Part shown: positions 11,588 to 54,571 of the stretch, in pieces
How the letters are laid out: every line of letters begins with the position of its first letter
Numbering within the stretch: the stretch's first letter is position 1
From: a virus
Taxonomy: Duplodnaviria > Caudoviricetes
IMG/VR virus record: IMGVR_UViG_3300014039_000012
Span: 32,001-96,000 of that record
Strand: one strand, 5' to 3'
Length of the DNA: 64,000 nucleotides
Notes under the pieces: model-generated
What the model saw: the letters and a program-made list of their open reading frames with translations, nothing else
Told to the model about the DNA's origin: nothing
Database searches by the model: none
Program-made: the position numbers and the translations under genes

Positions 11588-12622
11588 ATGGGGAAACGCT
11601 CAACGGTATACCATGAACTGGTCACTCCAGAAAAGTGGGACAAAGTTAATAAAAAAAATAAAAATCTAATCAACGAATTTACGGATTATTTGCGTTCGGC
11701 AAACAAATCTCCTGCGACAATCAAACAATATGAAGCACAATTACGTACTTTTTTCGTGTTTGTGTTGGAGAGATGCGAAAATAAATTTTTTGTTGATCTA
11801 AAAAAGAGAGAATTTGTTAAATATTTTGGATATTTGACAAATGAATTGGAGGTTTCTCCGAACAGAATTTGTTCAATGAGAGCCGTCCTTTCAAGTTTAT
11901 CTAATTTTATTGAAAGAATTTTGGATGAAGATTATCCGCAGTTCCGCAATCTTGTAAAAGTTTTGGAACCAGTGGATAAAGCTTTTGTTCGCGAGCGTCC
12001 TGCGCTAACAATGGATCAAATTAAAGAATGTTTGGAAAAATTGGAAGCGGATAAGAAATATCAAGTCGCTTGCTGTCTTGCGGTTCTTGCGGCAAGCGGA
12101 ATGCGCAAAAGCGAAGTAATTCAAATGAAAATGGAATATTTCGAAAAAGATAGACTAATTTATAATGGACTTGCCTATGAAACAGATAAGATTCGTACAA
12201 AGGGTCGTGGAAAAGCCGGGAAAGTTGTAACGAGAATTGTGTTTCGTAATTTGGTTGATTTAGACCATTATATTGATTTGTGGCGCAAAAAGCGCGAAGA
12301 ACTTGGGATCAAAGATGAATGGATGTTTGTTGTTTATCACGATGGTTCGTATGAGCAAGCAACCCAATCGACAATTAATTCTTTTGCAAGAACAATTGGA
12401 AAATATCTTGGAGAAGACTTTTTCGTCCATAATGTGAGACATACAACTTCGACGGCGTTGGAACTTGCTGGATACCCGATTGATGTTGTGCAGACAATTT
12501 TCCGTTGGGCAGATCCAAAAATGGTTAAATATTATTCAAATATTAGCGATACACAGTCATTGGAAAACTTTTTTGCTAATATGAACAAAGAAGAAAAAGA
12601 AGAAAGTGAGGAAAATAAATAA
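11588..12622 (+). CDS. Tyrosine recombinase (XerC/D-like)
   Basis: N-terminal SPATIKQY core-binding motif; catalytic GMRKSE, HNVRH, FRWAD (W at the second His position) and VKYY. Confidence 0.9.
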   Translation: MGKRSTVYHELVTPEKWDKVNKKNKNLINEFTDYLRSANKSPATIKQYEAQLRTFFVFVLERCENKFFVDLKKREFVKYFGYLTNELEVSPNRICSMRAVLSSLSNFIERILDEDYPQFRNLVKVLEPVDKAFVRERPALTMDQIKECLEKLEADKKYQVACCLAVLAASGMRKSEVIQMKMEYFEKDRLIYNGLAYETDKIRTKGRGKAGKVVTRIVFRNLVDLDHYIDLWRKKREELGIKDEWMFVVYHDGSYEQATQSTINSFARTIGKYLGEDFFVHNVRHTTSTALELAGYPIDVVQTIFRWADPKMVKYYSNISDTQSLENFFANMNKEEKEESEENK

Positions 12623-15176: not shown

Positions 15177-18100
15177 ATGTATTCCGATAAAGAATCTTTA
15201 AGGAAAATATTTTCAGATGCGGGATTTATAGATGTTGGTACCGGGCAATATCTAAGCGGACGTGGCGTGGGAGATGTTGGGCAGGCAAAGGCTGTAGTAT
15301 CTGCTCAGCAAAATAATTTAATAAATAGTATATACACTCTTGGCGCTCAGCTTTCAAGCGCAGGCATCAATTCTCAAACAAGCATTAAAAATAATAATTT
15401 AATTTTTGAATATTGGGATTCTAAAGATCCGTCATCAAAAGAGACAATTATACAGCCATTGCCAGATATGACTACGGTCGGTAAAAATATTGAAAATTTT
15501 GTTGGCGTTTTTGTGAGAAATAAATTACAATTCGTTGCCAACAGCGCTGCAAATATTGCCGTTGCAAATCAGAGAATGGCGACAGAATGGGGAAAACAAC
15601 AACTAAAAACCAATAAAGTTGCGGCCGTTAAACAGATTTTTCAATGGGCAAGAAAAGATGTTCTGGAACTATCGAGCACTGCTGGTTCAGAAGCAGTTTC
15701 TGATGCGTTTAAGGAAACAACGGCGGGAAGTGCGGCGGTTAATGCACAAAATGCTCAAAGGGTAAAATTAAAGCCTTATTTTCAAGGCGTAGCTTTTGCC
15801 AGCGGAATTGATTTTGAGAAATTTAATAACGAACTATATGAAATGTTTGCGTTGGTAACTATGGCACGAGATTTTCAAACCGCGAGAAAGGTACTTGATA
15901 GTGATCCAACTTTCAAAAAATTAAGAGAAAATAAACAATCATACGAAAAAGCTTTAAGATTATTTAATTCTGCGAGAAATCAAAACTTTGGACTCGGAAT
16001 AGCGGCGACTTCTGAAACATCTCAAGAAGGTTTGACTTTTTCTTTTGAGGGAGCAGAAACCACTATAGATCCTTTGGGAGGAGCTCGCCCTGCGTATAAG
16101 AGGGGTCAGCATAGGCCAGCTCGAATGAAAATGGTTTCTGACGTAAAATTATTTACAAGCCCAATTGCATCTAAGCACGGAGAGGGGCTTGGCTTAAAAT
16201 ATGGTCAAAGGGCCGCAGTTGCCAGAGGCGAGGCAATTCCGTTTGATGCTTTACTGAAAGGAATGGAAGTTAAAGAATCTGATCTTAAAGGAACGGGGAT
16301 GTCTATTCACGGCGGTCAGATGGAAATAACACCAGAAGCTGCGGAAATGTTTGGAACCGCGATGCAAGAATTTAATATCATTCTGACGCCAGATGATATA
16401 CAAGATTTTATTGAAAAAGAGCAAAAAAAGAAAAGAAACAAAAATAAGACAAAAGAACAGCTTATGGAGACTCTTATTAGTAAGACAATTGGAGAAACCG
16501 GACTGTCAGATGTCGATTTTCAAAAACTTGTAGATGAAGAAACGGGCGCAATAACCCTTGTTGGCAGCGGACGTAAGGCGTATAAAGATTTTCAGCGCGT
16601 TACAAGCGCGTCAGGCATTCGTGCAGCAACACATAAGTCAACAAAAGAAGCGTTTTCTCAATTAACTTCTCAATTAATGGATGTGGAAGACGAGGAAATT
16701 AGTTTTATCGTTGGACAAAGTGAGCTAAACAGCAGAAACTATCAAGAGGTGCTTGAACAAGATATAAGAACTGTTTTTGCTGAAGCGTATCAAAACAAAT
16801 TGGGTGCCTCTCAAAAAGGTCTTAAAGAACTAAAAGAAATCATCGAAAGAGATGCCGCAACCGAAGGGGATTTCAAGGAAATTGCTGGCATTTTTAAGGA
16901 TGCGTTTGAGTTCGATGAAGATAGTGGCCTTGTTTATGTGACTAACGATTGGCGTCAAAAAATGCAAGAATCTTCTGACCAAGATATTTTTGGTAGAGCG
17001 TTATTATATATAGACAATCTCATTCACGGTGAGCAAGAAAAGGATAAACATTTTTATAGTGAAACGGTTGATGAAGCTGGTCGTTTAATTGTAAAGAGAA
17101 ACGACCAAGTTAGAAGATATTTTTACGACGCAGTCAGCGCAACCGATCAATATAGATATGGAGAGTGGTCGCAGAGAGGCGCTGTTTCGCTATCTTCTGG
17201 CGCAGATTCATTAAGAAGATTGGCCGGAACAGTAAGTTCGAATGTTCGTGTTGGTGGTAGAAAATTGACACCGGAAGAAATAGTGGAAGCTGCGAATTCT
17301 ATAGCTGGAAGACTTGAGCCAACAAAAGAACAGCAAGAAATGCTTGATAGGGCGCAGAAGGCAGAGGAGGAAGCTCGTAATCTTACTTTATCGACAATGC
17401 GTTCTGATTTTACAAAATTTGGCGATGACGTAGTCGTAATTGGTCGCGGTGCAGATGCGGGAATAAATATTTCTGACATAAAACCAGCGGCGGAATACAA
17501 ATACGGAAAACCAACTAACGAAGAAGAAATGCTCGTTGGGCGCATTGAAGAGTATAAAAAGAAATATATTCAAGAACAAGTTGCAAGAGGCGTAGCAGAG
17601 GAAGAAGCAAAAAAAATGGCGGATGCCTTAAAATTTGCAATAGATTTGGAGCAAGGGGTTTCTTCTTCTGTAAAATATGACGACAAAATTTATGGTGTCG
17701 GGGGAAAATATTTTGTATTAAGAGAGGGGTTTGATGCCCAAACAGGTGGGGCGAAAGAGGCTCAGTCTCTTATCAATGCTATAAATGAAGGAAAAACGGA
17801 TGCTATTTCGGGTAGATTTGCAAGTGCGCTGAAAGCAAGTTATGAAGATGTCCACACAAAAAGAGGTCAGACGTATAAAAGAATTTGGAAACAAAAGCAA
17901 CCAGAAAGTATGTACGGGAGCGTCGGTACGTTTGGTGCGGCCGATGTTTTAACAGATGAAGAATATGAAAAGGCAGACAATGTTGCAAAATTAAAGAGTG
18001 ATATTGCGTCTGCCGGTGCTGCCATTTCTGCAAAAACAGCAAAAAAAATGCTGAAGGCAACTGACATCAAAGAACTCAGGGAAATGTACTCGACGTTTTC

Positions 18101-21100
18101 CGGAATTGAAGATGTTGAAGGTTTAAAAAAAGGAGATTTAATCGAAAATATAATTAAATATTTGACGATTGACTCTGATGAATTTAAGCAAGCTGCTTCA
18201 TCTGGCAGATTGAAAGAAGGTATTCGCAGCGTTGCTGGTCGTTTACCATTTATGAGCGGACTTGATATGAATGCAATTAATAAATTGTTCATAGCATCTG
18301 ATTTGGAAGACGACGGGGTCAGACTTTCTCTCGGTGGCGCGCTGAAAATGAATGCTGACTACGACGGAGATAAAGTTGCAATTGCCAGAATAAAAGATTT
18401 GAACGAACAAGAAAGAGCACTCTATGATGCTATGGCAGAAAGAACATCAAAAGTTCTTCGAACAATGGCGCTTATTGAAAAAGCCAACCAAGAAAAAGCA
18501 GACAAAGAGTCTGAGACGGTGCTTGGGAGTGAGCAATCTGATATTTTAAAAAATAAAAATATTGAATTTGCGGCGTCTATTGCGTCTCGTTTCGGTAAAT
18601 CGTCTACGGGCATTTTCTCGAACATTGCGAGTGAATTAAGGGCTTGGGTAAAAGAAGAAGGTCTTGATGAAATTTCTCTGCTTGAAAGTGGTGGCGGTGA
18701 TGCCGATCAAATAAAAACCGCAATTCAAGCTTCTATAATGAGATCGTTCTTTGAAGCTATGGAGCAGGATGTTATTAGTTCAAAAAAAACTATTAACAGG
18801 ATGGCAAAAATTCAAAGACAAAAAGATACTGGAGTAGATTCAGAGGACTTTAAATCTGAATCGGAAATGGAAGAGTTTTATCTTAAAAGCGTCTTTTCAG
18901 TAAGAGATTTGGTTAATAGATTTTTTGATAGAGAAAATGGACTAACTTTTAAAGAGTTGGTTGACACTCTTCAAGAAATGGGCGTGGTTGATGGATCTGA
19001 CGAAAATGCATTTTTAAAAGGGCGAGTTCCGCAACAATTAATGGCTTCTGCGGAAGGAATGGTGGCCGGAAGATCTGATGCTGATGATATCCTAAAAAGT
19101 GTTTTTGGAGAAAATTTCAAAAGTTTTGTAGAGTTGTCTAAATCAGACAAAGAAATAGAATATGGTAAATTGTCCAAAAATGTTGTTATGGGTGCCATTG
19201 AAAATATGGCTGGCTCTCTTGGTGTCGATGTAGAGGATTTATTAAGTTCGGCAACTAGACATAAATATACACCAGAAAAACAATCTATAACCGAAGAGAA
19301 TATGGCGTATTGGTTGTCTGGAAAACAATTGATTAATAAAAGTATTTTAGATCCTACATTTTATGATCAAATTGTTAAAAATGCTAATGAAGCAGAAGAT
19401 GCCGTTGATAGTGAACGAGTGGCAGAAGAAAAGAAAATTAAGGTTGCTAAAGATGAGGCAAAAGCAATTCTTGAAGCAAGTAGAGCCTATGGGACTCTTT
19501 CTGGGCAATTGGCAGATGCAAAAGACGCTTATGATAAATTCGGAACCGGGAAAAGTTATGGCGCAACTGCTCACGATATTGCAAGTTTGTTAAATCCATC
19601 CAGTTATACTGTTGTTGAAGGAAAATCCATTAGTAGAGACGCGCTGGCAGAACAAATTGTTTCGGCTACTTCTGCAAAATCTGATTCGGAACTTTATAAA
19701 ATAAAGAAAGAACTGGGAGACTCAAATTATATTCAAGCGCTTAAAGAGACGGCAGAGGCGTTAGATAAAGGAGCCGAGGAAAGACTCGCTGCTCAATCTG
19801 GTTTAACCGGAACAGATTTATTAAAAGAAAGAAACAGATTAGTTAGAGAAGCAAAGCAGAACGCAGAAGCTCGCCTTGGATTTAAAGGTACAATTAAAGA
19901 GTTTAGAGACAAGAGAGAATCCTTTATCCACACCCAAGAAGGCACTTACATTCACGCATTAGCTCAACAAATCGACACTGCGGGGAAAGATAACGTAATT
20001 AATGCAGAGGTAGAAAAGCAGCGAGCTCTTCTCGGTGCTCAAATGAGATCGCTTGGTTTTGCAGAATCTGAGATTACTAAAAGGGTTGAAAAGGCAAGTA
20101 CAAGCGCAAAAGCATTATATGAAAAAACGAGATCATTCGGCAATGTAGATTTTACAGAACAAAAGCTGACTTCTACACAAAGTGGTTCGCAAGGTTTTGT
20201 TCACGGCGCTGCCGACGCAATTGCGATTGATGAAAACGGCAATATTACGATTATTGACTGGAAGACAGGACAGAAATCTATTACAGACGAAAACAAGGCA
20301 CAGGTTGCGGTTTATCAATCGATACTTGAAGAATACAGAGGAAAGCTTAAAGATATTTACGAGAAGAGCTTCGATGGCAAATTTGCTTTAAGAAATCAAA
20401 GTGGCGATGATTCTTATGTCGAAGACATAATTAATCAGTTTTATAAAGAGAATATTGTTCATGAAGGATTGAAAGCAAGGTTTGGAGAAGAAGGGGCGAA
20501 GGATTTATTACGAAAGATTCTCTTGACCGGTGGCGGCAGAGAGGACGCGGAAGGGAACAGGATATTTGACCAAGCAATAAGGGGCGCTATCGTACTTTCA
20601 AATTCTCAAGGCATTAGTAGTTGGTCCGGCGCTGGTGGCATTCCTCCTGTTCTTGCAGAAAAACTTCTTTATAATCCAGAAAATTTAAGCCGTGATGAAA
20701 AAGCGATTATTTACGCTGGCGGTACGTATATTCCTGCTGGTTCTTCTACTGGTAAAAAAGGAAAAGGAAAATCGTCCGGAGGAGGATCTTCTGCGGGCGG
20801 AAGTAGCGAAAGAGAAAATTCCTTAAAGTCTGAATATATTAAGCTTCTTAAAGAACAGTACGATCTTATGATAAAGATCAATATTCTCGAACACAAGAGA
20901 GATGAAATGCTTGGCCGTGGAGAAGATGTAACGGCTGTAGAAAAGGATATAGACGTCTTAAAATCGGCTCTCGAGCAACAGAAAGAAATTCTTTCTGATA
21001 AACGTTTTAAAAAAACAGCAAAAGACAAAGGCGTTTTAGATTATATTTCTACGCAAGAGCATCGGGTTTCTTATCAAAAATCTCTTCTTGGTGTTGGAGA

Positions 21101-22259
21101 TGCAGAAGATACACTGAGAGCTTTTGAAAGATACGCTACAAAGCGCATGAAGCTTGAAAGCGAGATTGAACAAGCGCAACTTAAAGCCAGCACAACAGTT
21201 GGGAATGAGAAAAAAGCTTGGGAAAATGTTGTTGCATTAAAACAACAAAGTTTGAAAGTATCCGAGGACACTTATGAGATTCTGAAGAAGCAAGCAATTG
21301 GTGTTGATAAAGATAGAGCCCAAGAGATTATTGATGCTGTTGATCAGCAAAAAGCAATACTGTCTGCCCAAAAGCTCGCTGGCAATCGGGGCAATCGTAC
21401 AATCTTCGATGTTATTAAATCCGACATTCAACGTGCGACGATGCGTATCACCGATTTTGGTCTTGCGGCAAAAGTTCTCAATACTGCTCGCAAAGAAATT
21501 CAGCAAGTTTATCAGAATATTTTAAAGCTTGACGAAGCAATGACGAATCTTCGCATTGTTACCGGTTCCAACACCGAGCAAGCGAAGAGTATGATGAATA
21601 CCTACAACGATCTTGCAATGCAGCTCGGTACAACTACGCAAGCGGTTGCGTCTTCTGCGGCGGAATGGTTGAGACAGGGTTATTCTGTTTCTGAAACCAA
21701 CGAGCTGATTAAGTCTTCGACGTATTTGTCTCGTCTTGGCTTTATGGATATGAATCAGTCTGTTACGGCGCTGACCTCTGTTATGAAAGGTTTCCGTATT
21801 GAGGCAACCGACTCGATGGATATTGTCGATAAGCTGACGCAGCTTGATGCGAAATACGCAACCACGGCTGGCGATATCGCTACGGCTCTTTCGAGAACTT
21901 CTGCAGTTGCTCGCGAAGCAGGGCTCGATCTTGACCAGACAGCGGCGGCATTGACTACGATGATTGACGTATCACAGCAGGATGCAAGCAGCGTTGGTAA
22001 CGCTTTCAGAACGATTCTTGCGCGATACGGAAACGTTAAAGCTGGTGCGTTTACTTCTTTGGTTGGTGACTCTGATGATATTGATGACACAAATGGTTCT
22101 ATAAACGATACCGAAAAGGTGCTTGGAGCGATTGGAATTAAAATTCGTTCGTCTTCAAGTGATATGCGTGATTTTGACGACGTTATGGATGAACTTGCTG
22201 ATAAGTGGGTAACTCTTACAGACGTCGAAAAGAATGCCGTTTCAACGGCACTCGCAGGT
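15177..22259 (+). CDS. Exon 1 of giant tape-measure polyprotein: two-barrel RNA polymerase-like region, PD-(D/E)xK nuclease and phage tape-measure core domain
   Basis: NADYDGD at 18351-18371; GRLP at 18237; R-x7-R at 16596-16622; GTYIH...AAD...IIDWKTG...QVAVY nuclease motifs; LDEAMTNLRIVTG...GNAFRTILAR...DELADKW...STALAG tape-measure motifs. Confidence 0.85.
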
Positions 22260-22655
22260 GAACTAGCGCCTGTGTGTGGGCTAAAATACACACAAAGAAC
22301 ACATTTAATTGCAGGTAAAATCTTAGAGCCTTTTACCACAATAATCAAGAAATTAGATTATGACGGTTTGAAAACAAAAGGATTGGTAGATCTGCAGCGA
22401 AGCTCCTAAATGAATATTTCACAAGGAGAACGTTCAACGACCATCCCCCGATGAGGGGCATATTAATTATGTTACAGGAGTACGGCGCAAATAAAGGCGT
22501 GGGTGAAAATCCCTTAAATGGAAATGGTGTGGCTCGGTATGAAAATACAGGGTTAAGAAATGGTCTATTCTTACGCGAAAGCGTAAGCTGAAATTTGATA
22601 TAATTAAATTATATTAAATTTCGGGTCGGAGTTATGAACCGACCGAATATTAAAA
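22260..22655 (+). ncRNA. Group I intron (ORF-less, 396 nt) in tape-measure gene
   Basis: P1 gcaggU/Gccugu with U.G pair; P10 cuagc/guuag; core elements GTTCAACGACCAT and AAGAAATGGTC (P7). Removal restores ALAG|VRQRNIF in frame. Confidence 0.88.
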
Positions 22656-25600
22656 GTTAGACAGCGCAATATTTTCGGGATCTATATGGAAAATTACGAC
22701 ACATATAAGCAAGCAATTTCCGAAGCCGAAAAAGCAGAAGGTACAGCTGCTCGTAAAATGGAAGCATATAATGAGAGTATTGCTTATAGTATTAATCAGC
22801 TTTCTGCGGCTTGGGAAGGATTTACTCAAAAACTTGAAGCAAGCGGAGCGGTAAAACTTTTCTTCCAATTATTGACCGTAAGTGTAAAAAAATTTGGAAC
22901 AATTCTTTCTCAGGTTTTATCTACCGTCGTCTCTCTTCGTTCTTTCAAGTTGACAACCGACTTAAAACGTCTTGCCGACTTCTTTGGATTTAGTTCTTCT
23001 GAAGGAAAGGGTCGTTTGAGGACTAAGTGGGACAAAACAAAAGCTTGGTTTAGTCCGAACCGTATGACGAAACAAGCGGAACAAGAAAAAGAAAAGTATG
23101 AACAGCAAAGAGCGGACACGAGCGAAAAGAAGTCTCGAAACGAGGTTGTTAATTCTAACAACAAAGTCGTTGATGCATTAAATAGAAATGCCGACGCTCT
23201 TGATAGAAATAGCAATGCTCAAAACGCCAAACAAGCGGCGCAATCTGCGTCTCCGATGTCGGCGTCAAATACTCCTTCCGTTAAATCTTGGGCTACCGAA
23301 TATGGTACTTTAAATGGCAAATATGTCTATAAGACTGTTGATGGAAAATGGAAATACGGAAATAGGCACAATATAGACGATATAAGTATCTCTAATATAA
23401 AATCAATCGCTCCTCCTTCTGGCTCGTCGGCCACTTCAGCTATGAACCAAGTAAACGAACAGGAAGACAGAGTCCCGTCACGTTTTTGGTTGGCTGGACT
23501 ATCTGGGTCAACCATTGTTTCTGGCGGTGGACTTTTTGGAATTCGCGCTTCTGCTGCGAAAAAAGTTCTTTCTATAGACAAGCAGATAGAAGATTTAAAA
23601 AATGGACCCGCTGCATTTGGAAACGAGGACTTAACAAGAGACAGAATTACCGAACTTAAAAATCAAAGAAATAATATTTATAAAAAATATGGATTTTCTG
23701 AAGATGAAGACCTAAATCAAATTATTCAAGATAGACAATTGCGTACTCAAGAACTCAAGGCTAACTGGAAACAGGGCGCAATTCGAGGGGGCGGAACTGG
23801 CTTGGCGGCGGGTATTATTTCCGGAATGTCTGCAGAAGGTGATGTTCAAGATAAATTAGTAGCTGGCGCTACAACCGCTATTACAACCGGATTACTCAGC
23901 GCAATTCCTGGAGTTGGAACAATTCTTGGTCCAATTTTAGGCCCTATTTTGGGTGGATTCTTCGGTAAAGAGATTAATAAACTTCTTAAAGCAGACGAAG
24001 TCGCTCGAAAAAAACGTGTCGAAGATGCTAAAAAGCAGCTTGAAACAATTAAGGGAATCGGAAATTCAGTTACCGGACTAATTGATCTTAACAAAAAAGA
24101 TCAAGCGTTGTGGGATTCTGACGATTGGAAGCAGTTTAATGAGCAAGTTGAAACAATCAATGAGGCTCTTGAAAAGTCAAAACTTGGAGATAGGCTTATT
24201 GATCTGGGAGATAGCACACAAACTCTTTCTGAGTATTTCGAAGAAGCGGCAAGAACTGGAAATAAAGATATGCTTGCCCGCGTCGAAGCAGAAAAGATTC
24301 GTTTTGAGGCGGAAAAGACATACGCAGCAGGAGAACAAGATCGTTATACTCTTCAAAAAGAGATTAACGAGAATCAAAAGAAACTCGCAAATCTTGACGA
24401 CGACGAGATATCGAAAAAGAAAGAACTAACCGCAGCAATTAAGGCTGCAAAAGCAGAAATAGAAGACTACTCCGAAACCCTGAAGAATGGTTATATGGAA
24501 GCATCATTCTACTCTTCTGGTGTTGGCACAATGGAGTCTTATGACATTGGAAACGCAACGCTCGATAGAGTAATTATGCAAATTGCTCGCGAATGGGCAA
24601 AAGACAGCCCGGATATTTTTGCTGGAAATCAATTGACGAGTGATGCCCGTTCTGATATTATTTCGTATCTGCGCGAACAGTCCGGTTATTCTTCGCTGTT
24701 TAAAAATGATACGAAGAATGTTAGAGATATGTTGAATGCGGAAAAGGCTGTTGAGAATCTTAGAACTACTCTCGGCGTGTCTCAAAAACAGCTAAAAGAA
24801 TTTGCTAACAGCAAAGATCTTTCTGAAATTGCTGATAAATTCGGCGCAACTGGGGATGCTCTCTACAAAATTATCGACCAAGTCAACCTTGTTGATGAAG
24901 ATGGAATTTCAACTATCGCTCACGCAATGAATATGACGGTCGAGCAGTTTAGGGAGGCGAACTCCGAAGGCGCATTTGACTGGCTGACTACAGATGTTGC
25001 AATTGGCGGTCTTGATAAACTCAATGAGAAACTCGCGACGTTTAACGAGCTTTTGCTTGCAGCGTCTGAAAATTCTCTATTCTCACAGGAAAACATCAAC
25101 AAGATCGTTAGCCAATATCCAACGCTGCTTAAAAAAATTGACGAAGAAACTGGAAAAATTTCTGTTTCTATGGACAACGTTCAAGAAAATTTGGTCGATA
25201 TTCTTGCCGGAGGAGAAAGTTTACAAAAATTATATACTGGATTTTTTACAAGAAAGATCGCCACGGATGAAGAGACGTGGGAAGTCTTTATCTCCTCCAT
25301 TAGAGAAGATATTGAAAAGGATTCTAATCTTGACGATATAAGGGACGAGATATTTGAACAGACAGATTATTCTGGTTTCTATAAAATTTATGAAGAGAAT
25401 AAAGATGTACTCGAATCTTATAATCAAAGTTTTATTGAATATGCGAAGAGTCTATTTTCAGCAGATGTTTTTGATGCCAGACAAGAAATCCTAACCAAAT
25501 ATGCAACAAATACTCTTGAAACAGAGATTTCTAATCTTGAATCAATTCGAGACTCTCTTGATGAAGTTAACAAACAACGCGAGAAGGAAATTGAATTAAT

Positions 25601-27200
25601 CAAAGCAAAAGAAGCTCTTGAAAATGCATCAAAAGAAAAGAAACGCGTTTATCGTGCCGGTGTAGGATTCGTTTACACAACAGACCAGGAAGCAGTTAAA
25701 TCCGCGCAGGATAAAGTTGACGAACTTGAAAGACAACGAGACAAGGATAATATTCAATACCAAATCGATTCGCTGCAACAACAGAAAGAAATTCTTGAAA
25801 ACATTAAAGACAACGAACAGTTAAAGGCGTTGCAAAAAGAAGCGGAAGAAATACTTGGAGCACTTGGTGTTAATGGAAGCATTGTTACCGCTATTTTAAG
25901 TGAGAGCAAAGAAGAATTTGAAGCAAACATAAAAAAAAATCTTGGTGGAAGTATTGGCGAGGGCGCAGCAGATGTGAATGCGGAGATAGTTTCTGAAACA
26001 GAAAATGAATATTATCGTGCCAAAGCTGAATTAGAAGCATTCCAGCAAGGTAAGGTTATTCTTGGATATAATAAGAAAAAAGATAAGAATGGTAATGAAG
26101 TAGATGATTATACTAGCCCAATAGTAAGGAATATGACAGATAAAGAACTTGAAGCATATGGTGGAATGACACCGGGGCAAGTTTCTCAAAATAAAAATTC
26201 TCCATTTTATTCCGAAGCTAAAAAGGAAGAGGGAAGGCTTATTGGAAATGTGGAAAGTGCTAAAAATAGGTGGGCGGCAGTGGATCCAACAGTAAAAGAT
26301 AAAATTGAAAATCCAACAACTTTATTTGAAAAACAAGATTATAAAACAAGCTTTTTAATGACAAATCCACAAGATAATTATGATAATAAAACGGAGAATG
26401 AGTATGGTTTATTCTCGGTTTCTAATGAACAGATAATAGATATGTCTAATAGAATTGATGGAGATATTAAAAAATTTAGATACGCCTTGCAAAATGCAGA
26501 TGGTACAATCGGGAGTTGGGAAAGTTTTAGTTCTAATGTTGCAAAAGATGGAAGTGTTGAAAAACAAATTTCTGATTTAAAAGGTCCTGTTGTTATTGCA
26601 AATTTAGACGATCGTCCAAATACTGTTTTCTATAAGGGAGCAGATGGTTTGTATTATAAAATGTATGGATATGACAATACAATGAATCAATTTGATGAAG
26701 GCAAGGCCACTGGAAATTCTAAAAAACTTTGGGCTTGGAAATTTATAAATGGAGAGCCTTATATTTTAAATGTTCCATCTGGAGTTTCTACAGAAGCACA
26801 TCAAAGTAATACTAATAAAGGCCGAGAATTGATTGGTTATCCAGAAGCGACTTTTGCTTCCGGTACGCTTTCAGCACCCGGCGGTCGTTCTCTAATCAAC
26901 GAAAACGGTCTTGAATCTATCATAACTCCTTCTGGCACAATCACTTCTCTTCCTGCTAAATCCGGAATCATTCCTGCCGATCTTACTCGCAACTTGTGGG
27001 CTCTCGGCGAGGTTGCTCCTAACCTTATTGCTCGTCTTGGTGGAAATAGTCTTCAGACCAATAATTCTAATTCTTCTACCGACAATTCGATTAATATTCA
27101 GAATCTTGATGCTACGTTTAATACGCAAAGCGACTTCGATGGACATCGCTTCTTGACAGATCTTCGTAATCAAGTTATTTTGACTGCGAATAATCACTAA
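22656..27200 (+). CDS. Exon 2 of tape-measure polyprotein
   Basis: VRQRNIFGIYMENY continues the tape-measure motif; long coiled coil; Gly-rich hydrophobic segment; C-terminal FASGT..INENGLE..IIPADLT typical of tape-measure ends. Confidence 0.85.
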   Translation, partial: VRQRNIFGIYMENYDTYKQAISEAEKAEGTAARKMEAYNESIAYSINQLSAAWEGFTQKLEASGAVKLFFQLLTVSVKKFGTILSQVLSTVVSLRSFKLTTDLKRLADFFGFSSSEGKGRLRTKWDKTKAWFSPNRMTKQAEQEKEKYEQQRADTSEKKSRNEVVNSNNKVVDALNRNADALDRNSNAQNAKQAAQSASPMSASNTPSVKSWATEYGTLNGKYVYKTVDGKWKYGNRHNIDDISISNIKSIAPPSGSSATSAMNQVNEQEDRVPSRFWLAGLSGSTIVSGGGLFGIRASAAKKVLSIDKQIEDLKNGPAAFGNEDLTRDRITELKNQRNNIYKKYGFSEDEDLNQIIQDRQLRTQELKANWKQGAIRGGGTGLAAGIISGMSAEGDVQDKLVAGATTAITTGLLSAIPGVGTILGPILGPILGGFFGKEINKLLKADEVARKKRVEDAKKQLETIKGIGNSVTGLIDLNKKDQALWDSDDWKQFNEQVETINEALEKSKLGDRLIDLGDSTQTLSEYFEEAARTGNKDMLARVEAEKIRFEAEKTYAAGEQDRYTLQKEINENQKKLANLDDDEISKKKELTAAIKAAKAEIEDYSETLKNGYMEASFYSSGVGTMESYDIGNATLDRVIMQIAREWAKDSPDIFAGNQLTSDARSDIISYLREQSGYSSLFKNDTKNVRDMLNAEKAVENLRTTLGVSQKQLKEFANSKDLSEIADKFGATGDALYKIIDQVNLVDEDGISTIAHAMNMTVEQFREANSEGAFDWLTTDVAIGGLDKLNEKLATFNELLLAASENSLFSQENINKIVSQYPTLLKKIDEETGKISVSMDNVQENLVDILAGGESLQKLYTGFFTRKIATDEETWEVFISSIREDIEKDSNLDDIRDEIFEQTDYSGFYKIYEENKDVLESYNQSFIEYAKSLFSADVFDARQEILTKYATNTLETEISNLESIRDSLDEVNKQREKEIELIKAKEALENASKEKKRVYRAGVGFVYTTDQEAVKSAQDKVDELERQRDKDNIQYQIDSLQQQKEILENIKDNEQLKALQKEAEEILGALGVNGSIVTAILSESKEEFEANIKKNLGGSIGEGAADVNAEIVSETENEYYRAKAELEAFQQGKVILGYNKKKDKNGNEVDDYTSPIVRNMTDKELEAYGGMTPGQVSQNKNSPFYSEAKKEEGRLIGNVESAKNRWAAVDPTVKDKIENPTTLFEKQDYKTSFLMTNPQDNYDNKTENEYGLFSVSNEQIIDMSNRIDGDIKKFRYALQNADGTIGSWESFSSNVAKDGSVEKQISDLKGPVVIANLDDRPNTVFYKGADGLYYKMYGYDNTMNQFDEGKATGNSKKLWAWKFINGEPYILNVPSGVSTEAHQSNTNKGRELIGYPEATFASGTLSAPGGRSLINENGLESIITPSGTITSLPAKSGIIPADLTRNLWALGEVAPNLIARLGGNSLQTNNSNSSTDNSINIQNLDATFNTQSDFDGHRFLTDLRNQVILTANNH

Positions 27201-42148: not shown

Positions 42149-44308
42149 ATGGCAACTGAAAGAACTTTAAAGACACGAGTTATATTAAAGCATGACACAG
42201 AAGAAAACTGGAACAAGGCAACGACATTTGTTCCGAAGAAAGGCGAGGTGATTATTTATGACCCCGACAACGCACATCCTTATTCGCGACAAAAGTTAGG
42301 AGATGGAGAAAAGACGGTAGTTAATTTACCGTTTTTTGAAAACATAGGTCCCGTTGGACCAACTGGTCCTACTGGACCTATAGGTCCTCAAGGGCCAACC
42401 GGTGCAGGTGGAGCAGTAGGCCCGACTGGAGCAACTGGAAGCGTTGGACCTACAGGTTCTCCCGGAAAGGATATAACAGAAATAGATATTAATAGCATTG
42501 ATACGTTTTTAAGTGATAGTCCTGTTAGTGGATCATTTGGACCATATGGAACTATGATCATTTCTGGAAGAACCGTAGTAGATGTTGGAGGCGATGCCAA
42601 AAGTATTGATACAATTTTTGATACCAGCATTGCCCCTGGAACATATATTAAAGCGACATTTAATGAAGACCCTAATTATTTTTCAATTGATGTTGATAAA
42701 GATAAACTTGGATCAGAACTCTCAACTCAAGTCGGAACTTCCGATAATCTCTCTCATCTTTCTAAAATTCTTTACACAGAAGAGTCCGCTATTCCCGCCA
42801 CTCCAGATGCTACGATTGAATATGCCGTAACAGATTTTATCGGCTACGAAGACCTTGATTCAAGTTTACAAGCTCAGATTGATAAAATGGGAAATACCGG
42901 TCCTACAGGCCCTGCTGGAGCAAAGGGAGACAAGGGAGATACAGGCGCTACGGGAAATGTTGGTCCGACAGGATCTACAGGTCCAGTAGGTCCTACTGGT
43001 TTACAAGGAGAAATTGGGCCTCAAGGACCTACGGGTGAAACAGGTCCGACCGGAGAAGTGGGGGCACCAGGTCCTCAAGGCCCAAAAGGCGATGGCATTG
43101 AACAAATCAACGAGTTCAACACAGGAGTCCCCCAAACCGTCATTTATGACACAACCACTGGAGCAGAAATAACCAGCAATGCCACAATTGATTATGTGGA
43201 TAGCACTACCGGACAAACCAAAGGCCGCACCTTCACAATGAGAAGCAAAATGCCCATTCAACCCGGCAAGTACATCAGCATTGATGCCAACAGCGAAAGT
43301 GATGCCATTGAAGTAAAAGTCGATGATACGGCGCTTTCGTTGGATTATGTGCCAATTCCTAAAGGATTAAGTGCGGACAGTAGCTTATCTGTTGAAAATG
43401 GCAAATGTGTTTGGTATACGAACTCAAGCTACGCAGTGCCCAAGTCATTTGTTTGGAGAGACGCTAATGGAGACTGTGATTTTAACAATGTAATATTACA
43501 AGCTATCAGGGCGAATCGTCAAGGCGCATATGAAACATCTCTTGCACAGATATATTTCTCTTGTGCCGATGTCTATTTTTCTGTAGCTAAAACCTCAACC
43601 GACACAGGAACGTTAGGACCAATCGACTTTTCAAGAATTCAGGCCTACCCTAACATTCGTATTAACTACGACAATCAGGTATACATTCTTCAAGACCCAA
43701 ACACCGCGCCAGATGGCACACTCAACTATGTCCACATTGATGAAGATGGAACAACTAAGTGCTTTTCAATTACTGTTTCTGATCGTTCTTGGAAAGTTAC
43801 GACAATACCAACTTCAAGTATTAAAATTGGAACGGCAAATTCTTCTGAAAATCTTTCAAATATTGCTTATTTGGCGAACAACGACCTTCCTGCTTCTCCT
43901 GCATCCAATACAGAATATGCGATTACCGATTTAATTGGGTATGACGATCTTGATTCTGAACTACAGGCAAAAATTGATGCTGGAGGTTCTGGCGGAGGAG
44001 AATACCTACCTCTTAGTGGTGGAACATTGTCTGGGAGCTTATCGGTGAAAGATGTAGCCAGAGAAGGCGTGGACATTACCCCATCGGGTATTTATTTTTA
44101 TGTAAGTGGCGGCAGTGGTAGTGGCCAGCTTATTGGGATTTCTGATGAGGCTGGAACTTCTTCGGCAATTGCTCTTTCGCAAAAAGGCGTAGCCGATAAT
44201 TATGTTGCAAGAACAGATTTTCCCTCTAATTTGTTGAAATACAAAATTGTAACTTCTACTTCCCAAATTGGAACTGACGCGAACACAGCTTATCTGATTC
44301 TTGAATAA
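42149..44308 (+). CDS. Collagen-like fibre protein with Mtd_N-type N-terminus
   Basis: LKHDTEENW...PKKGE...KLGDG; GPTG repeats; internal duplication EYA(V/I)TD.IGY.DLDS.LQA.ID. Confidence 0.75.
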   Translation: MATERTLKTRVILKHDTEENWNKATTFVPKKGEVIIYDPDNAHPYSRQKLGDGEKTVVNLPFFENIGPVGPTGPTGPIGPQGPTGAGGAVGPTGATGSVGPTGSPGKDITEIDINSIDTFLSDSPVSGSFGPYGTMIISGRTVVDVGGDAKSIDTIFDTSIAPGTYIKATFNEDPNYFSIDVDKDKLGSELSTQVGTSDNLSHLSKILYTEESAIPATPDATIEYAVTDFIGYEDLDSSLQAQIDKMGNTGPTGPAGAKGDKGDTGATGNVGPTGSTGPVGPTGLQGEIGPQGPTGETGPTGEVGAPGPQGPKGDGIEQINEFNTGVPQTVIYDTTTGAEITSNATIDYVDSTTGQTKGRTFTMRSKMPIQPGKYISIDANSESDAIEVKVDDTALSLDYVPIPKGLSADSSLSVENGKCVWYTNSSYAVPKSFVWRDANGDCDFNNVILQAIRANRQGAYETSLAQIYFSCADVYFSVAKTSTDTGTLGPIDFSRIQAYPNIRINYDNQVYILQDPNTAPDGTLNYVHIDEDGTTKCFSITVSDRSWKVTTIPTSSIKIGTANSSENLSNIAYLANNDLPASPASNTEYAITDLIGYDDLDSELQAKIDAGGSGGGEYLPLSGGTLSGSLSVKDVAREGVDITPSGIYFYVSGGSGSGQLIGISDEAGTSSAIALSQKGVADNYVARTDFPSNLLKYKIVTSTSQIGTDANTAYLILE

Positions 44309-46273: not shown

Positions 46274-49996
<3,723 letters not shown>

Positions 49997-51899: not shown

Positions 51900-51915
51900 A
51901 TTGGCGGTGGTTGAT

Positions 51916-54339
51916 ATGGATAAAAATTCTTTAAATAAAAAACTTAATTATTTGAAATCTTATATGGATGTCACAAAAAATGCGGCAACTCTATCGGCAG
52001 TTGATAGTAATGCAAATGTAACTTCTCGTAACGTCGCAACAATGTTCGCAGAATTACCTAAAGAAGATACAATCGCAGTAAATAGAGCAATTGTTGAAGA
52101 ATATCTTTTAAAACTTTATGGAGAGGATTTGGTTAATAGCTTTAGGGAAGATATGAAACATCATATTTTATATTCTCACGACGAGTCTTCTCTTATGCCG
52201 TATTGTGTTGCGATTTCTTTATATCCATATCTTTTGGATGGACTTAAACCGCTTGGCGGAACTTCTGGTCCTCCTAAACACTCCGATTCTTTCATCGGAG
52301 GACTAACTAATTTAATCTTTTTAATTGCGGGGCAGTTTGCTGGCGCCGTCGCCGTCCCCGAAACAATTCCATATCTCGATCATTTTCTTCGCGTAGACTA
52401 TGGAGACGATTATACAGAACATCTTGACGATATTGTAGAATCATTTGGAAATAGAAGATACACCCTTCGTAAAAAAATTGAGGATTTGTTTCAGCAGTTT
52501 GTATATTGCGTGAATCAGCCGGCTGCAGCACGCGGATACCAAAGTCCGTTCGTAAATATAGCATACTTCGACAGAGGATATTTCAATTCCATTTTTAAAG
52601 ACTTTGTCTTCCCCGATGGAGACGAGGCAAGTTATGAATCAACATCCGTTCTTCAGAAGATGTTTATGAAGTGGTTCAACAAGGAAAGAACCAAAGAGGT
52701 TATTACGTTTCCCGTTGAGACGATGAATCTGTTATACGACAAAGATACAAAGAAATTTGTCGATGAAGATATGGCAGATTTTACGGCAGAAATGTGGGCG
52801 GAGGGACATTCCTTCTTTCTGTATAATTCTGATTCTGCTGACGCGTTGAGTTCATGCTGTTTTAGTGGAGAACAAACGTGCCTCTCAAGATCTTCAGATG
52901 GTGTAAATTATATGACATTTAAAGAATTATATAATGCGCCGTATAATATAACAAAAAGAAATTTTACTATCTTTCACAATGGGAACTGGTGCCAAGGAAA
53001 ATTAATTCGTCTCCCCGCACGAGAAATGTATCATATAACAACTGTTAATAACAAAGATCTTTTTGTTACAGACAACCATATTAATCCAACATATAGCGGA
53101 AACAAAAGAACGATTGATTTAACAGAAGATGACTATCTTATGTTTAATACAGGTGTTTTAAATGCTGTTCACGAAACAGATAGAAACCTTAGTTATGAAC
53201 AAGGATATCTTATTGGAATGTATTTGGGCGATGGGAGTATGGAGTCGGAAGATTCGAATAATACAACAACCGTACACCTTAGTTTAAATGAAGAAAAGTA
53301 TAAGAACTCATTTGAAATTATTCAAAGAGCAGTACCGATGGCAAAAGTTTCCCTCGGACGGGTTTATCACAATGTCTATCCCGTGTCGATTCGGAATAAT
53401 GAGGTGGCCTCGTTTGTTAGACAATTTGTATATGGGAAATATTCGTTCGAAAAGGAGCTGAATCCCGATTGTCTGTTGCAGTCTGTTGAATTTCGAAGAG
53501 GAATTCTTGATGGATATTATGAAACCGATGGAGGAAATTCTAATAGAATTTATACGACTTCGTATAAATTAGTCGGGCAGATCGAACTTTTGTGTACGAG
53601 CCTCGGAATCAATACTATTGTTAATGTTTCTGATAGAACGGGCGATGGACTTGTCGTAATTAGAGGAAGAGAATTTAACAGAAACTATCCCGTTTATTGC
53701 ATTCGTTGGTATGAGACATATAAAAGGAATCAGGCAAACATATATAAGAGAAAGAATAACTCGATTTATTTCAAAATTAAATCTATTGAAAAATGCGACT
53801 ACGAAGACGAGTATGTATATTGCTTTGAAATGAAAAATGAGGAAGAGCCATACTTTACACTTCCAAACGGCATTATTACTCATAATTGTCGTTTAAAGAG
53901 CGGAATTGAAAATAATGTGTTTAGTTATACGCTTGGGGCTGGAGGACTTCGTACTGGCTCCAAAAAAGTAATTACGTTAAACTTAAACAGAATTACGCAG
54001 GATTGGGATAGAGCGGGAAGAAAAGAGCCAATTGAAGAATATGTTGGAGTAATTGTAAAACGAGTTCATAAATATTTGATCGCTTGGAATGAATGGCTGA
54101 AAAATCTTTATAAGGCCGGACTTCTTACTGTTTACTCCGCTGGATATATTGCACTCGAAGATCAATATTTGACTGTTGGCATCAATGGAGGTCTTGAAGC
54201 GGCTGAGTATCTTGGAATTGAAACGAGGGCAGATAATCTCGAATACCAGAAACTTATGAACGCTGTTCTAACGAAAATTAAAAACATTAATCTTGAGGAC
54301 AGAACGCCAGAAATAAAGTTTAATACGGAATTTGTGCCT
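51916..54339 (+). CDS. nrdD: Anaerobic ribonucleoside-triphosphate reductase, exon 1 (contains intein)
   Basis: YSHDES..PYCVA, QFAGAVA, QSPFVN, TFPVET and SSC|CRL motifs. Confidence 0.92.
52858..53886 (+). mobile_element. Intein (343 aa) with LAGLIDADG homing endonuclease in NrdD
   Basis: Starts CFSGEQ; block B VTDNH; YLIGMYLGDG and GILDGYYETDG; ends ITHN before Cys. Excision gives ALSSCCRL. Confidence 0.93.
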
Positions 54340-54571
54340 AAAGCGTGTGGGCACCTAAAATAATAAAATTTTAGTAAAAAACCTTTTCTAATTGACTTGG
54401 AATCCCGGTTCGGGAGACAGGGCGGAAGCTGAAGCACCGTGAACGACTAAATGAAAAGGCGCCATAATATTTGGCGATGCGATAGTCTGAACTTCGCTAT
54501 ATAAAGAAAGCGAAGAGTAAAATTTAACGATTTTACCGCCGAAATGTTTCGGTCATAAAAGCAACAGAATG
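54340..54571 (+). ncRNA. Group I intron (232 nt, ORF-less) in nrdD
   Basis: P1 gugccU/Gggcac; P7 GACTA/TAGTC; terminal omega-G at 54571. Splicing gives TEFVP|AENASVK. Confidence 0.9.

Follow-up and report, generated by a model that had tools for sequence, protein, structure and literature searches.

The tape measure protein (TMP) of the Thermus phage P23-45, the 5002-amino acid (aa) gp96, is the closest described counterpart of the gene considered here: its N-terminal ~1100 residues form an active two-barrel RNA polymerase (RNAP), which is present in virions, transcribes the pre-early genes and has been crystallized (structures 8H2M/8H2N) (PMC10770324, Chaban et al. 2024). Its authors proposed that this RNAP works at the TMP pore during DNA entry, and the supplement of the same study contains no other TMP fusions (PMC10770324). 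The strategy has so far rested on one thermophilic phage lineage. Here we describe a further polymerase-bearing TMP, encoded in a 64,000-nucleotide (nt) stretch of DNA from an uncultured phage (the window, to which coordinates refer unless the genome is named), which corresponds to bases 32001-96000 of the 169,441-bp IMG/VR record IMGVR_UViG_3300014039_000012. The first ~1400 residues of this 3875-aa TMP are probably a DNA-dependent RNAP of the beta + beta' type on a single chain. The sequence-only reading of the window, which had proposed such a polymerase, was aware of no TMP-RNAP fusion; one is in fact published and biochemically proven, namely P23-45 gp96. The concept of the fusion is therefore already known, and what is new is a family unrelated to gp96 in sequence, closer to the beta/beta' enzymes and with an added nuclease.

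Two barrels on one chain, the beta-like preceding the beta'-like, are also found in phi14:2 gp66 (PDB 6VR4), YonO (Bacillus SPbeta) and QDE-1 (Neurospora), none of which gives a sequence-level match to the module from the window. The phi14:2 enzyme is itself packaged in the virion and ejected but, unlike the module described here, is not part of a TMP. YonO is not known to be a virion protein. The virion RNAP of coliphage N4 is comparable by function only, being a giant injected virion protein that transcribes early genes; it has a T7-like right-hand fold and not a two-barrel one.

A predicted polymerase module on a genuine tape measure protein

The module lies in a 2410-aa open reading frame (ORF; 15177..22409, + strand), which constitutes the 5' part of a larger split gene: with a group I intron spliced out, the frame is open for 3875 aa (spliced gene 15177-27200, +). 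Whereas the sequence-only reading had treated the ORF as the tape-measure gene, it represents exon 1 only, and its last 49 residues are encoded by the intron. The same ORF contains a TMP core at aa 2144-2361 (21606..22259, +), its end interrupted by the intron, which matches Pfam PF10145 (PhageMin_Tail) over the full profile (1-201) with E 9.3e-33 and 114 bits (cut-off 33.2), while PHROG tape-measure families match from aa ~1920 with E-values down to 1e-42. The RNAP-bearing polypeptide is thus the one that carries the PF10145 TMP core, it is encoded within a tail gene module, and it shows the gp96-type architecture with the RNAP module N-terminal on the TMP. That a single-chain two-barrel RNAP is fused N-terminally to a genuine TMP, as had been claimed from the sequence, is supported by sequence profiles, a confident structural model and an exhaustive fold search alike.

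Predicted structure of the two barrels

An AlphaFold2 model computed from the family alignment for aa 280-1400 (1121 residues) has a mean predicted local distance difference test score (pLDDT) of 80.9 and a predicted template modeling score (pTM) of 0.79; a second model covers aa 690-1235 (pLDDT 75). The sequence-only reading had suggested examining the module with AlphaFold and Foldseek, and a two-barrel polymerase fold was found, with the RNAP beta and then the beta' portion in the expected order. In the Foldseek search against the PDB the matches listed were RNAP chains, nearly all of them beta'-type, the best being a chain of the AR9 non-virion RNAP (nvRNAP; 7s01_d, 5e-4). The exhaustive and Foldseek-independent VIA search of 48,161 PDB representative chains returned two-barrel polymerases in all of the top 19 places (Z 7.0-10.3). 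The top nine were all beta/Rpb2-type subunits placed on aa 288-669, headed by the beta-like chain of the phiKZ nvRNAP (Z 10.3, 281 residues). Pairwise VIA-align comparisons correspondingly superimposed model residues 9-390 (aa 288-669) on the C-terminal half of beta/Rpb2-type subunits, including the phiKZ and AR9 nvRNAP beta-like chains, with Z 10-11 (up to 11.1) over 250-285 residues. The beta'-type subunits align further along the chain, on aa ~735/890-1385 (Rpb1 and A190 with Z 8.5; Mycobacterium tuberculosis (Mtb) beta' with Z 8.5 over 416 residues), and the single-chain enzymes align across both barrels: QDE-1 with Z 8.2, P74-26 gp62 with 7.6, RDR2 with 7.0, phi14:2 gp66 with 6.3 and P23-45 gp96 with 6.1 (294 residues).

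The order of elements, i.e. a beta-like barrel, a beta'-like barrel and then helices resembling the bridge helix and trigger loop, is supported by both profiles and model. The first recognizable unit is the beta-like module at aa ~288-669 (16038..17183, +), delimited by VIA-align and the family alignment, which contains the predicted second double-psi beta-barrel (DPBB-B) and the conserved basic residues R474, R482 and R520; in the model this beta-type barrel lies N-terminal to the barrel bearing the DxDxD motif. It is preceded by an N-terminal region (aa 1-287; 15177..16037, +) of weak family conservation, for which local phmmer found weak matches in 10 of the 17 long relatives. A connector (aa ~670-906; 17184..17894, +) separates the barrels, and within its second half aa ~735-905 pair positionally with the N-terminal clamp part of beta'/A'/Rpb1 (from residues 13-21), at a high root-mean-square deviation (rmsd) of 7.5-13.7 Å; the stretch is at most a tentative counterpart of the clamp, which the flat structure of gp96 lacks.

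The beta'-like barrel (DPBB-A, aa ~907-1101; 17895..18479, +), recognized by profile, Pfam PF00623 and structure, carries R1022-L-P1024 and NADYDGD and has a helical insertion at aa ~920-1015. The DxDxD domain is predicted to adopt the double-psi barrel fold: in the model it aligns with Mtb beta' 421-564 (Z 8.7, rmsd 4.5 Å, 137 residues) and with S. pombe A190, of which 110 residues superpose at rmsd 2.7 Å. Isolated and designed DPBB domains align at aa 910-1072 (Z 5.3-6.7) and place the first strand of the barrel at ...SMYGSVGTF, where the sequence-only reading had put it. With the smaller model of aa 690-1235 the top 11 matches were RNAP largest subunits only, with a barrel-core rmsd of 2.7-4.5 Å.

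Downstream of DPBB-A, model secondary structure and conservation single out two further elements. A predicted 40-residue helix at aa 1121-1160 (18537..18656, +; model H842-881) bears K..TGxFSN, and a helix-break-helix at aa 1176-1218 (18702..18830, +; model H897-922 and H924-939) has EQDxISSKK at its break. By their position after DPBB-A these are candidates for the bridge helix and the trigger loop, respectively; the beta'/Rpb1 alignments extend through this region, to model residue ~1085-1105.

Sequence links to cellular-type polymerases

The family profile matched 74 distinct sequences in the PDB, all of them beta'-type RNAP chains aligned on RxP...NADFDGD, with E-values of 7e-4 for vaccinia rpo147, 1.4e-3 for phiKZ gp55 and 0.018 for E. 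coli beta'. Six of the 22 relatives individually match Pfam RNA_pol_Rpb1_2 (PF00623; best E 4.9e-7). Searches with the single sequence align on the same R-x-P...NADFDGD elements: PHROG 2987 'RNA polymerase beta subunit' was recovered with E 1.6e-4 at aa 988-1081, and a phmmer search of the PDB with aa 1-1400 produced a single marginal match, to phiKZ gp55 (E 2.7). Neither megablast nor tblastn of the module against 50,697 GenBank phage records yielded a match.

Conservation of the active-site residues

All eight peptides quoted in the sequence-only reading occur at the positions it gave. In the beta-like barrel these are IHGGQ... (aa 377-392), QRVTSASGIRAA (aa 473-484, with R474/R482) and ISFIVGQ... 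(aa 508-527); in the beta'-like barrel, KQKQPESMYGSV at its start (aa 905-916), GRLP (aa 1021-1024) and the Mg-binding motif NADYDGD (aa 1059-1065; nt 18351-18371, +); and beyond it, STGIFSN (aa 1143-1149) in the candidate bridge helix and EQDVISSKK (aa 1196-1204) in the candidate trigger loop. Our main alignment spans aa 280-1400 in 22 sequences, which outside the close clade are 19-38% identical, and in alignments with relatives of this divergence the quoted motifs are the top-conserved columns. Invariant in all 22 are R309, G947, R1022, P1024, D1061, D1063, D1065, G1145, S1148, N1149, Q1197, S1201, K1203 and K1204, and the catalytic residues among them are those that had been picked out from the single sequence; K1141 in the candidate bridge helix is conserved with one exception. 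A survey of DxDGD among homologous TMPs, also suggested by that reading, therefore found the triad D1061/D1063/D1065 kept in every sequence. The arrangement R1022-L-P1024, 36 residues, D1061-Y-D-G-D1065 conforms to the pattern [RK]xP-x(20-100)-DxDxD, which served as the filter for accepting RNAPs in Supplementary Data 4 of Chaban et al. (PMC10770324).

In two-barrel RNAPs the beta-type barrel supplies two basic residues (PMC7824862). In the aligned relatives R474 and R482 are R or K, except for R474 in the most divergent sequence, and three relatives read GDK...(I/M/V)KGS, near the beta-subunit motif that the sequence-only reading had cited. R520, within (D/N)xR(N/K), is R or K in all relatives but one; these exceptions at R474 and R520 are single ones and fall within the two most divergent sequences. 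Position 379 is Glu or Asp in 15 of 18 distant relatives (consensus SVREGQ). The sequence-only reading had suspected that a K-to-R and an ED-to-HG change might alter the chemistry of the enzyme or inactivate it. The former is ordinary and conservative R/K variation across the family; the latter is real, but it is confined to the close clade of this phage and amounts to the loss of one accessory acidic residue, with the Mg-binding triad intact.

Relatives, selection and mosaicism

The family is small: a word-indexed search of 5.8 billion proteins gave 28 matches, and 22 were obtained when 1.84 billion cluster representatives were searched exhaustively with HMMER. Almost every member is a giant protein of 1.7-5 thousand residues, and in 15 of the 17 relatives longer than 1700 aa the RNAP module lies ~1000 residues upstream of a TMP core. 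A relative at 36% identity shares the same gene neighbourhood. A profile search of genome collections gave two matches only, in metagenome bins labelled Christensenellaceae and Bacilli, and a scan of viral contigs with the family alignment, in which the record of the window may itself be missing, confirmed no relative. In public annotation the members are called 'minor tail protein' or are unnamed, and such enzymes are therefore being missed. The best match by far in BFVD, a collection of viral predicted structures, is A0A8S5SD80_1 (Foldseek E 2e-22; TM 0.54 over 988 columns at 14% identity), a 'minor tail protein' of uncultured Siphoviridae sp. ctnpt50; crAss-like phage proteins are also among the matches of that search. 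Judging from these predicted structures, the same two-barrel fold is hidden by public annotation in the tail proteins of other phages.

The RNAP module is under very strong purifying selection. The ratio of nonsynonymous to synonymous substitution rates (dN/dS) was computed by segment from the comparison with L011, a relative whose protein is 88% identical. It is lowest, at 0.005 (dS 0.71), for aa 906-1260, i.e. the beta'-like barrel, bridge and trigger, as against 0.03 for the nuclease domain, 0.053 for the beta-like module and 0.18 in the TMP part; no portion of the protein is more constrained than the polymerase core. The two halves of the gene are mosaic. Compared with the protein from the window, P0025 is 33% identical in its RNAP part and 66% in its TMP part, whereas P0002 is 98% identical in the former and 57% in the latter; in the comparisons with P0002, P0005, P0025 and P0026, those relatives that are near-identical in the RNAP half have C-terminal halves that are 41-57% identical. 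Since the RNAP and TMP parts differ in identity between relatives, the fusion has been maintained through recombination.

A PD-(D/E)XK nuclease domain of the RecB/Cas4-like kind (aa 1586-1720; 19932..20336, +), recognized by Pfam PF12705 (E 1.1e-9) and PHROG exonuclease families, follows the RNAP module and precedes the TMP core. Among the more distant relatives local phmmer found it in five only, and in P0025 the nuclease segment has no blastp similarity to that of the window's protein.

Comparison with gp96 and the multisubunit polymerases

The likeness to P23-45 gp96 (and its counterparts in P74-26, G20c and TSP4) lies in architecture and proposed role: in both, a giant TMP carries an N-terminal single-chain two-barrel RNAP, which has RxP...DxDGD in its beta'-like barrel and is proposed to be injected and to make the first transcripts. 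At the level of sequence the two are not detectably related beyond what the shared fold would entail, and the window's family does not appear to belong to that of gp96: hhalign of the family against gp96 1-1200 gives a probability of 3% (E 0.015) over 78 columns around DxDGD only. The module from the window fits beta/beta' subunits better than it fits gp96 by profile, Pfam and VIA alike. Further differences concern the connector between the barrels (~240 residues here as against 67, disordered, in gp96), the accessory domain (a PD-(D/E)XK nuclease here, a metallopeptidase in gp96), the presence in P23-45 of a second polymerase, gp64, where none is detectable in the genome of the window phage, and the setting, a Thermus phage as against a mesophilic one (39% G+C).

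The multisubunit RNAPs, including the phiKZ and AR9 nvRNAPs (PDB 7OGP, 7S00), provide the best matches in both sequence (beta', E 7e-4 to 0.02) and structure. Unlike them, the present enzyme has both barrels on one chain that is fused to a tail protein, and neither further subunits nor a sigma-like factor could be identified here. By a size argument only, the ~80 residues between the SVREG-like strand and the basic hairpin leave no room for a flap (sandwich-barrel hybrid motif, SBHM).

Mechanistic interpretation and alternative explanations

From the sequence and the predicted structure taken together, we consider it likely that the module is an active DNA-dependent RNAP, carried on the ruler and injected, which starts the infection programme and leaves the later genes to the host enzyme. 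By analogy with P23-45 gp96 we infer a mechanism in which the TMP would occupy the tail lumen as the ruler of tail length and would, at infection, be expelled ahead of, or together with, the DNA. The C-terminal and hydrophobic parts of the TMP may then help to build a conduit through the envelope, and the N-terminal polymerase would refold or dock at its cytoplasmic end and transcribe the genes that enter first, without the host polymerase. The later genes, many with sigma-70-like promoters, would be left to the host enzyme because no second phage polymerase is detectable in the genome.

A ruler-borne polymerase would allow transcription to start at a time when no phage protein can yet have been made, and would couple DNA entry to transcription. 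If this is true, the strategy would be seen to recur in a sequence-unrelated family, one found only in metagenomic phage contigs and in two Firmicutes-labelled bins; the family would also give a mesophilic system for studying the passage of a ~155-kDa enzyme through a tail tube, and add a compact single-chain polymerase of cellular type for structural and evolutionary comparison. Somewhat short of even odds, we tentatively suggest that the fusion of a TMP with a polymerase originated here a second time and independently, from a beta/beta'-type enzyme, and not one of the gp96/gp64 type, that was joined to the ruler along with a PD-(D/E)XK nuclease, and that the product may be an injected multi-enzyme, the only polymerase of its phage, whose modules are exchanged between phages.

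Several observations weigh against an active polymerase delivered on the ruler. The VIA Z-scores of 6-11 are moderate for a model of 1121 residues. A profile of the beta-like region alone, run against the PDB, returned coiled-coil noise and no beta subunit, and the beta-like barrel is supported by the predicted structure only. R474 and R482, which the AlphaFold2 model places on adjacent strands, are no more than candidate equivalents of the two beta lysines (K1065/K1073). All 23 close relatives read SIHGGQ, and the resulting Gly at position 379 could weaken binding of the second metal. Unspliced mRNA would give an RNAP-bearing product that is devoid of the C-terminal 1514 residues of the ruler, and a folded ~155-kDa enzyme is too large for the tail tube, so that delivery needs unfolding or some other arrangement.

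The loss at position 379 of an acidic residue that most distant relatives keep, and the fact that the beta-like barrel is undetectable by sequence, would fit a polymerase fold that is catalytically dead and has been exapted, either to bind DNA as a pilot or plug or to form a structural cap at the head-proximal end of the ruler. We regard this as unlikely: the three Asp, the Arg of RxP, the basic residues of the other barrel (R/K nearly throughout) and EQDxISSKK are kept at 19-38% identity, the lowest dN/dS (0.005) coincides with the catalytic part, and conservation of metal ligands is unexpected for a purely structural domain. An enzyme that is active but serves another role, such as an RNA-dependent RNA polymerase (RdRP) of the QDE-1/RDR type, a primase-like starter of replication or a PolD-like DNA polymerase, might be suspected from the presence of QDE-1 (Z 8.2) and plant RDR2 (Z 7.0) among the structural matches to both barrels and from the nuclease domain downstream in the chain, which would suit the processing of DNA ends or replication; moreover, template preference is not readable from sequence. 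The profiles, however, match DNA-dependent beta'/Rpb1 and Pfam RNA_pol_Rpb1_2 and not RdRP families, and in structure, too, DNA-dependent enzymes come out as the best matches. A further argument against such a role is the presence of candidates for a bridge helix and a trigger loop, PolD sharing the barrels only (PMC10770324), and we think it improbable, if not by much more than a dead domain.

Least probable among these alternatives, in our estimate, is an RNAP that does not travel on the ruler, being either freed by proteolysis or made from unspliced mRNA as the 2410-aa ORF, and acting as a non-virion or head-packaged enzyme. It would draw on the intron, which separates the RNAP-nuclease part from the C-terminal 1514 residues so that unspliced translation stops 49 codons in, and on the many close relatives recorded as ~2370-aa products. 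Against it, intron-less relatives, one of them 99.5% identical over exon 1, encode a single protein of 3690-3880 aa. Furthermore, the break comes after the TMP core and not between RNAP and TMP; the short product is therefore still an RNAP-TMP fusion, and the fusion is kept in 15 of 17 long relatives.

The group I intron and other mobile elements

The intron (22260..22655, +; 396 nt, without an endonuclease ORF) was recognized by a match to Rfam RF00028 at 22228-22587 (55.9 bits), and its borders were set from intron-less relatives. P0002, an uninterrupted protein of 3763 aa and the one that is 99.5% identical over exon 1, aligns by tblastn to nt 22259 and resumes at ~22659, and the intron-less relatives read ...STALAG/VRQRNIFGIY... 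at the junction, which equals the end of exon 1 followed by the frame that opens at 22656. Exon 1 (15177..22259, +) hence comprises codons 1-2361, with the RNAP module, the nuclease domain and the start of the TMP core. The 5' splice site after U22259 is marked by a P1 helix in which GCAGGU of the exon pairs with GCCUGU of the intron, and three other copies of the same intron on IMG/VR contigs (L012-L014) show the compensatory change GCGGGU/GCCCGU. As G22260 and G22656 are interchangeable, the borders are ambiguous by 1 nt (22260-22655 or 22261-22656), the mRNA being identical. Unless the splice sites are shifted by one base, exon 2 is preceded by an A; a terminal G, the usual base, is therefore ambiguous in the window and missing from the copy L015.

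Exon 2 (22656..27200, +) contributes 1514 codons and a stop and encodes the C-terminal half of the TMP, which is 57-66% identical to the uninterrupted C-terminal halves of the relatives. It holds a Gly-rich hydrophobic segment (spliced aa 2774-2793; nt 23892-23951), and no match to it was found in Pfam or PHROG.

Group I introns have a hotspot at the end of the TMP core, where they occur in the window and in the relatives L010 (9044-9313 and 9434-9768), L011 (9047-9315) and L012-L015. A 97%-identical relative has two introns, ~8 codons upstream and ~12 codons downstream of the site used in the window, and copies of the window's intron in other IMG/VR contigs have an ORF after P9. The genome is rich in selfish elements generally, including introns, an intein and homing endonucleases. 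The gene for the anaerobic ribonucleotide reductase NrdD (51901-54363) is split by an intein with a LAGLIDADG endonuclease (PF13597, PF14890, PF14528), and two large HNH/homing-endonuclease genes (genome 21806-23182 and 25114-26907; PHROG 3339, E 1e-88 and 1e-102) adjoin a portal-like gene in the head module.

Genome context

The virus record (169,441 bp, 38.8% G+C) is estimated to be complete. The neighbours of the TMP gene include portal, structural, tail-fibre, collagen-like fibre and holin-like genes, with tail-fibre and tail genes on both sides. A Pfam search for the sheath family (PF04984) found none, and the tail is probably non-contractile; nor did Pfam recognize any family in the small neighbouring ORFs, which were searched for a tail tube or chaperones.

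A search of the 169-kb record for a second polymerase, by regular expression and family profile, found nothing convincing, the profile recovering the TMP gene only, although a very divergent enzyme could escape it. NADxDGD occurs once in the record, and other DxDxD matches fall in short or acidic ORFs. One of these, the DYDGD in a 453-aa ORF (genome 11017-12375), lies within an acidic stretch and is not convincing as the sign of a second polymerase.

A tyrosine-recombinase (integrase-like) gene (11588-12622) lies within the tail module, three genes before that for the TMP, and is placed in the same way in the relatives L009 and L011. The fibre proteins encoded at 42149-44308 and 46274-49996 contain long collagen triple-helix repeats (PF01391, up to 4e-39). 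Elsewhere in the genome the sequence GGGAGCGG, mostly extended to GGGAGCGGTT, is present in 24 copies, 22 of which are clustered within 8 kb (genome 142106-150169) in both orientations. The cluster lies just before the genes switch from the + to the - strand, and GGGAGCGG is a candidate polymerase or replication signal.

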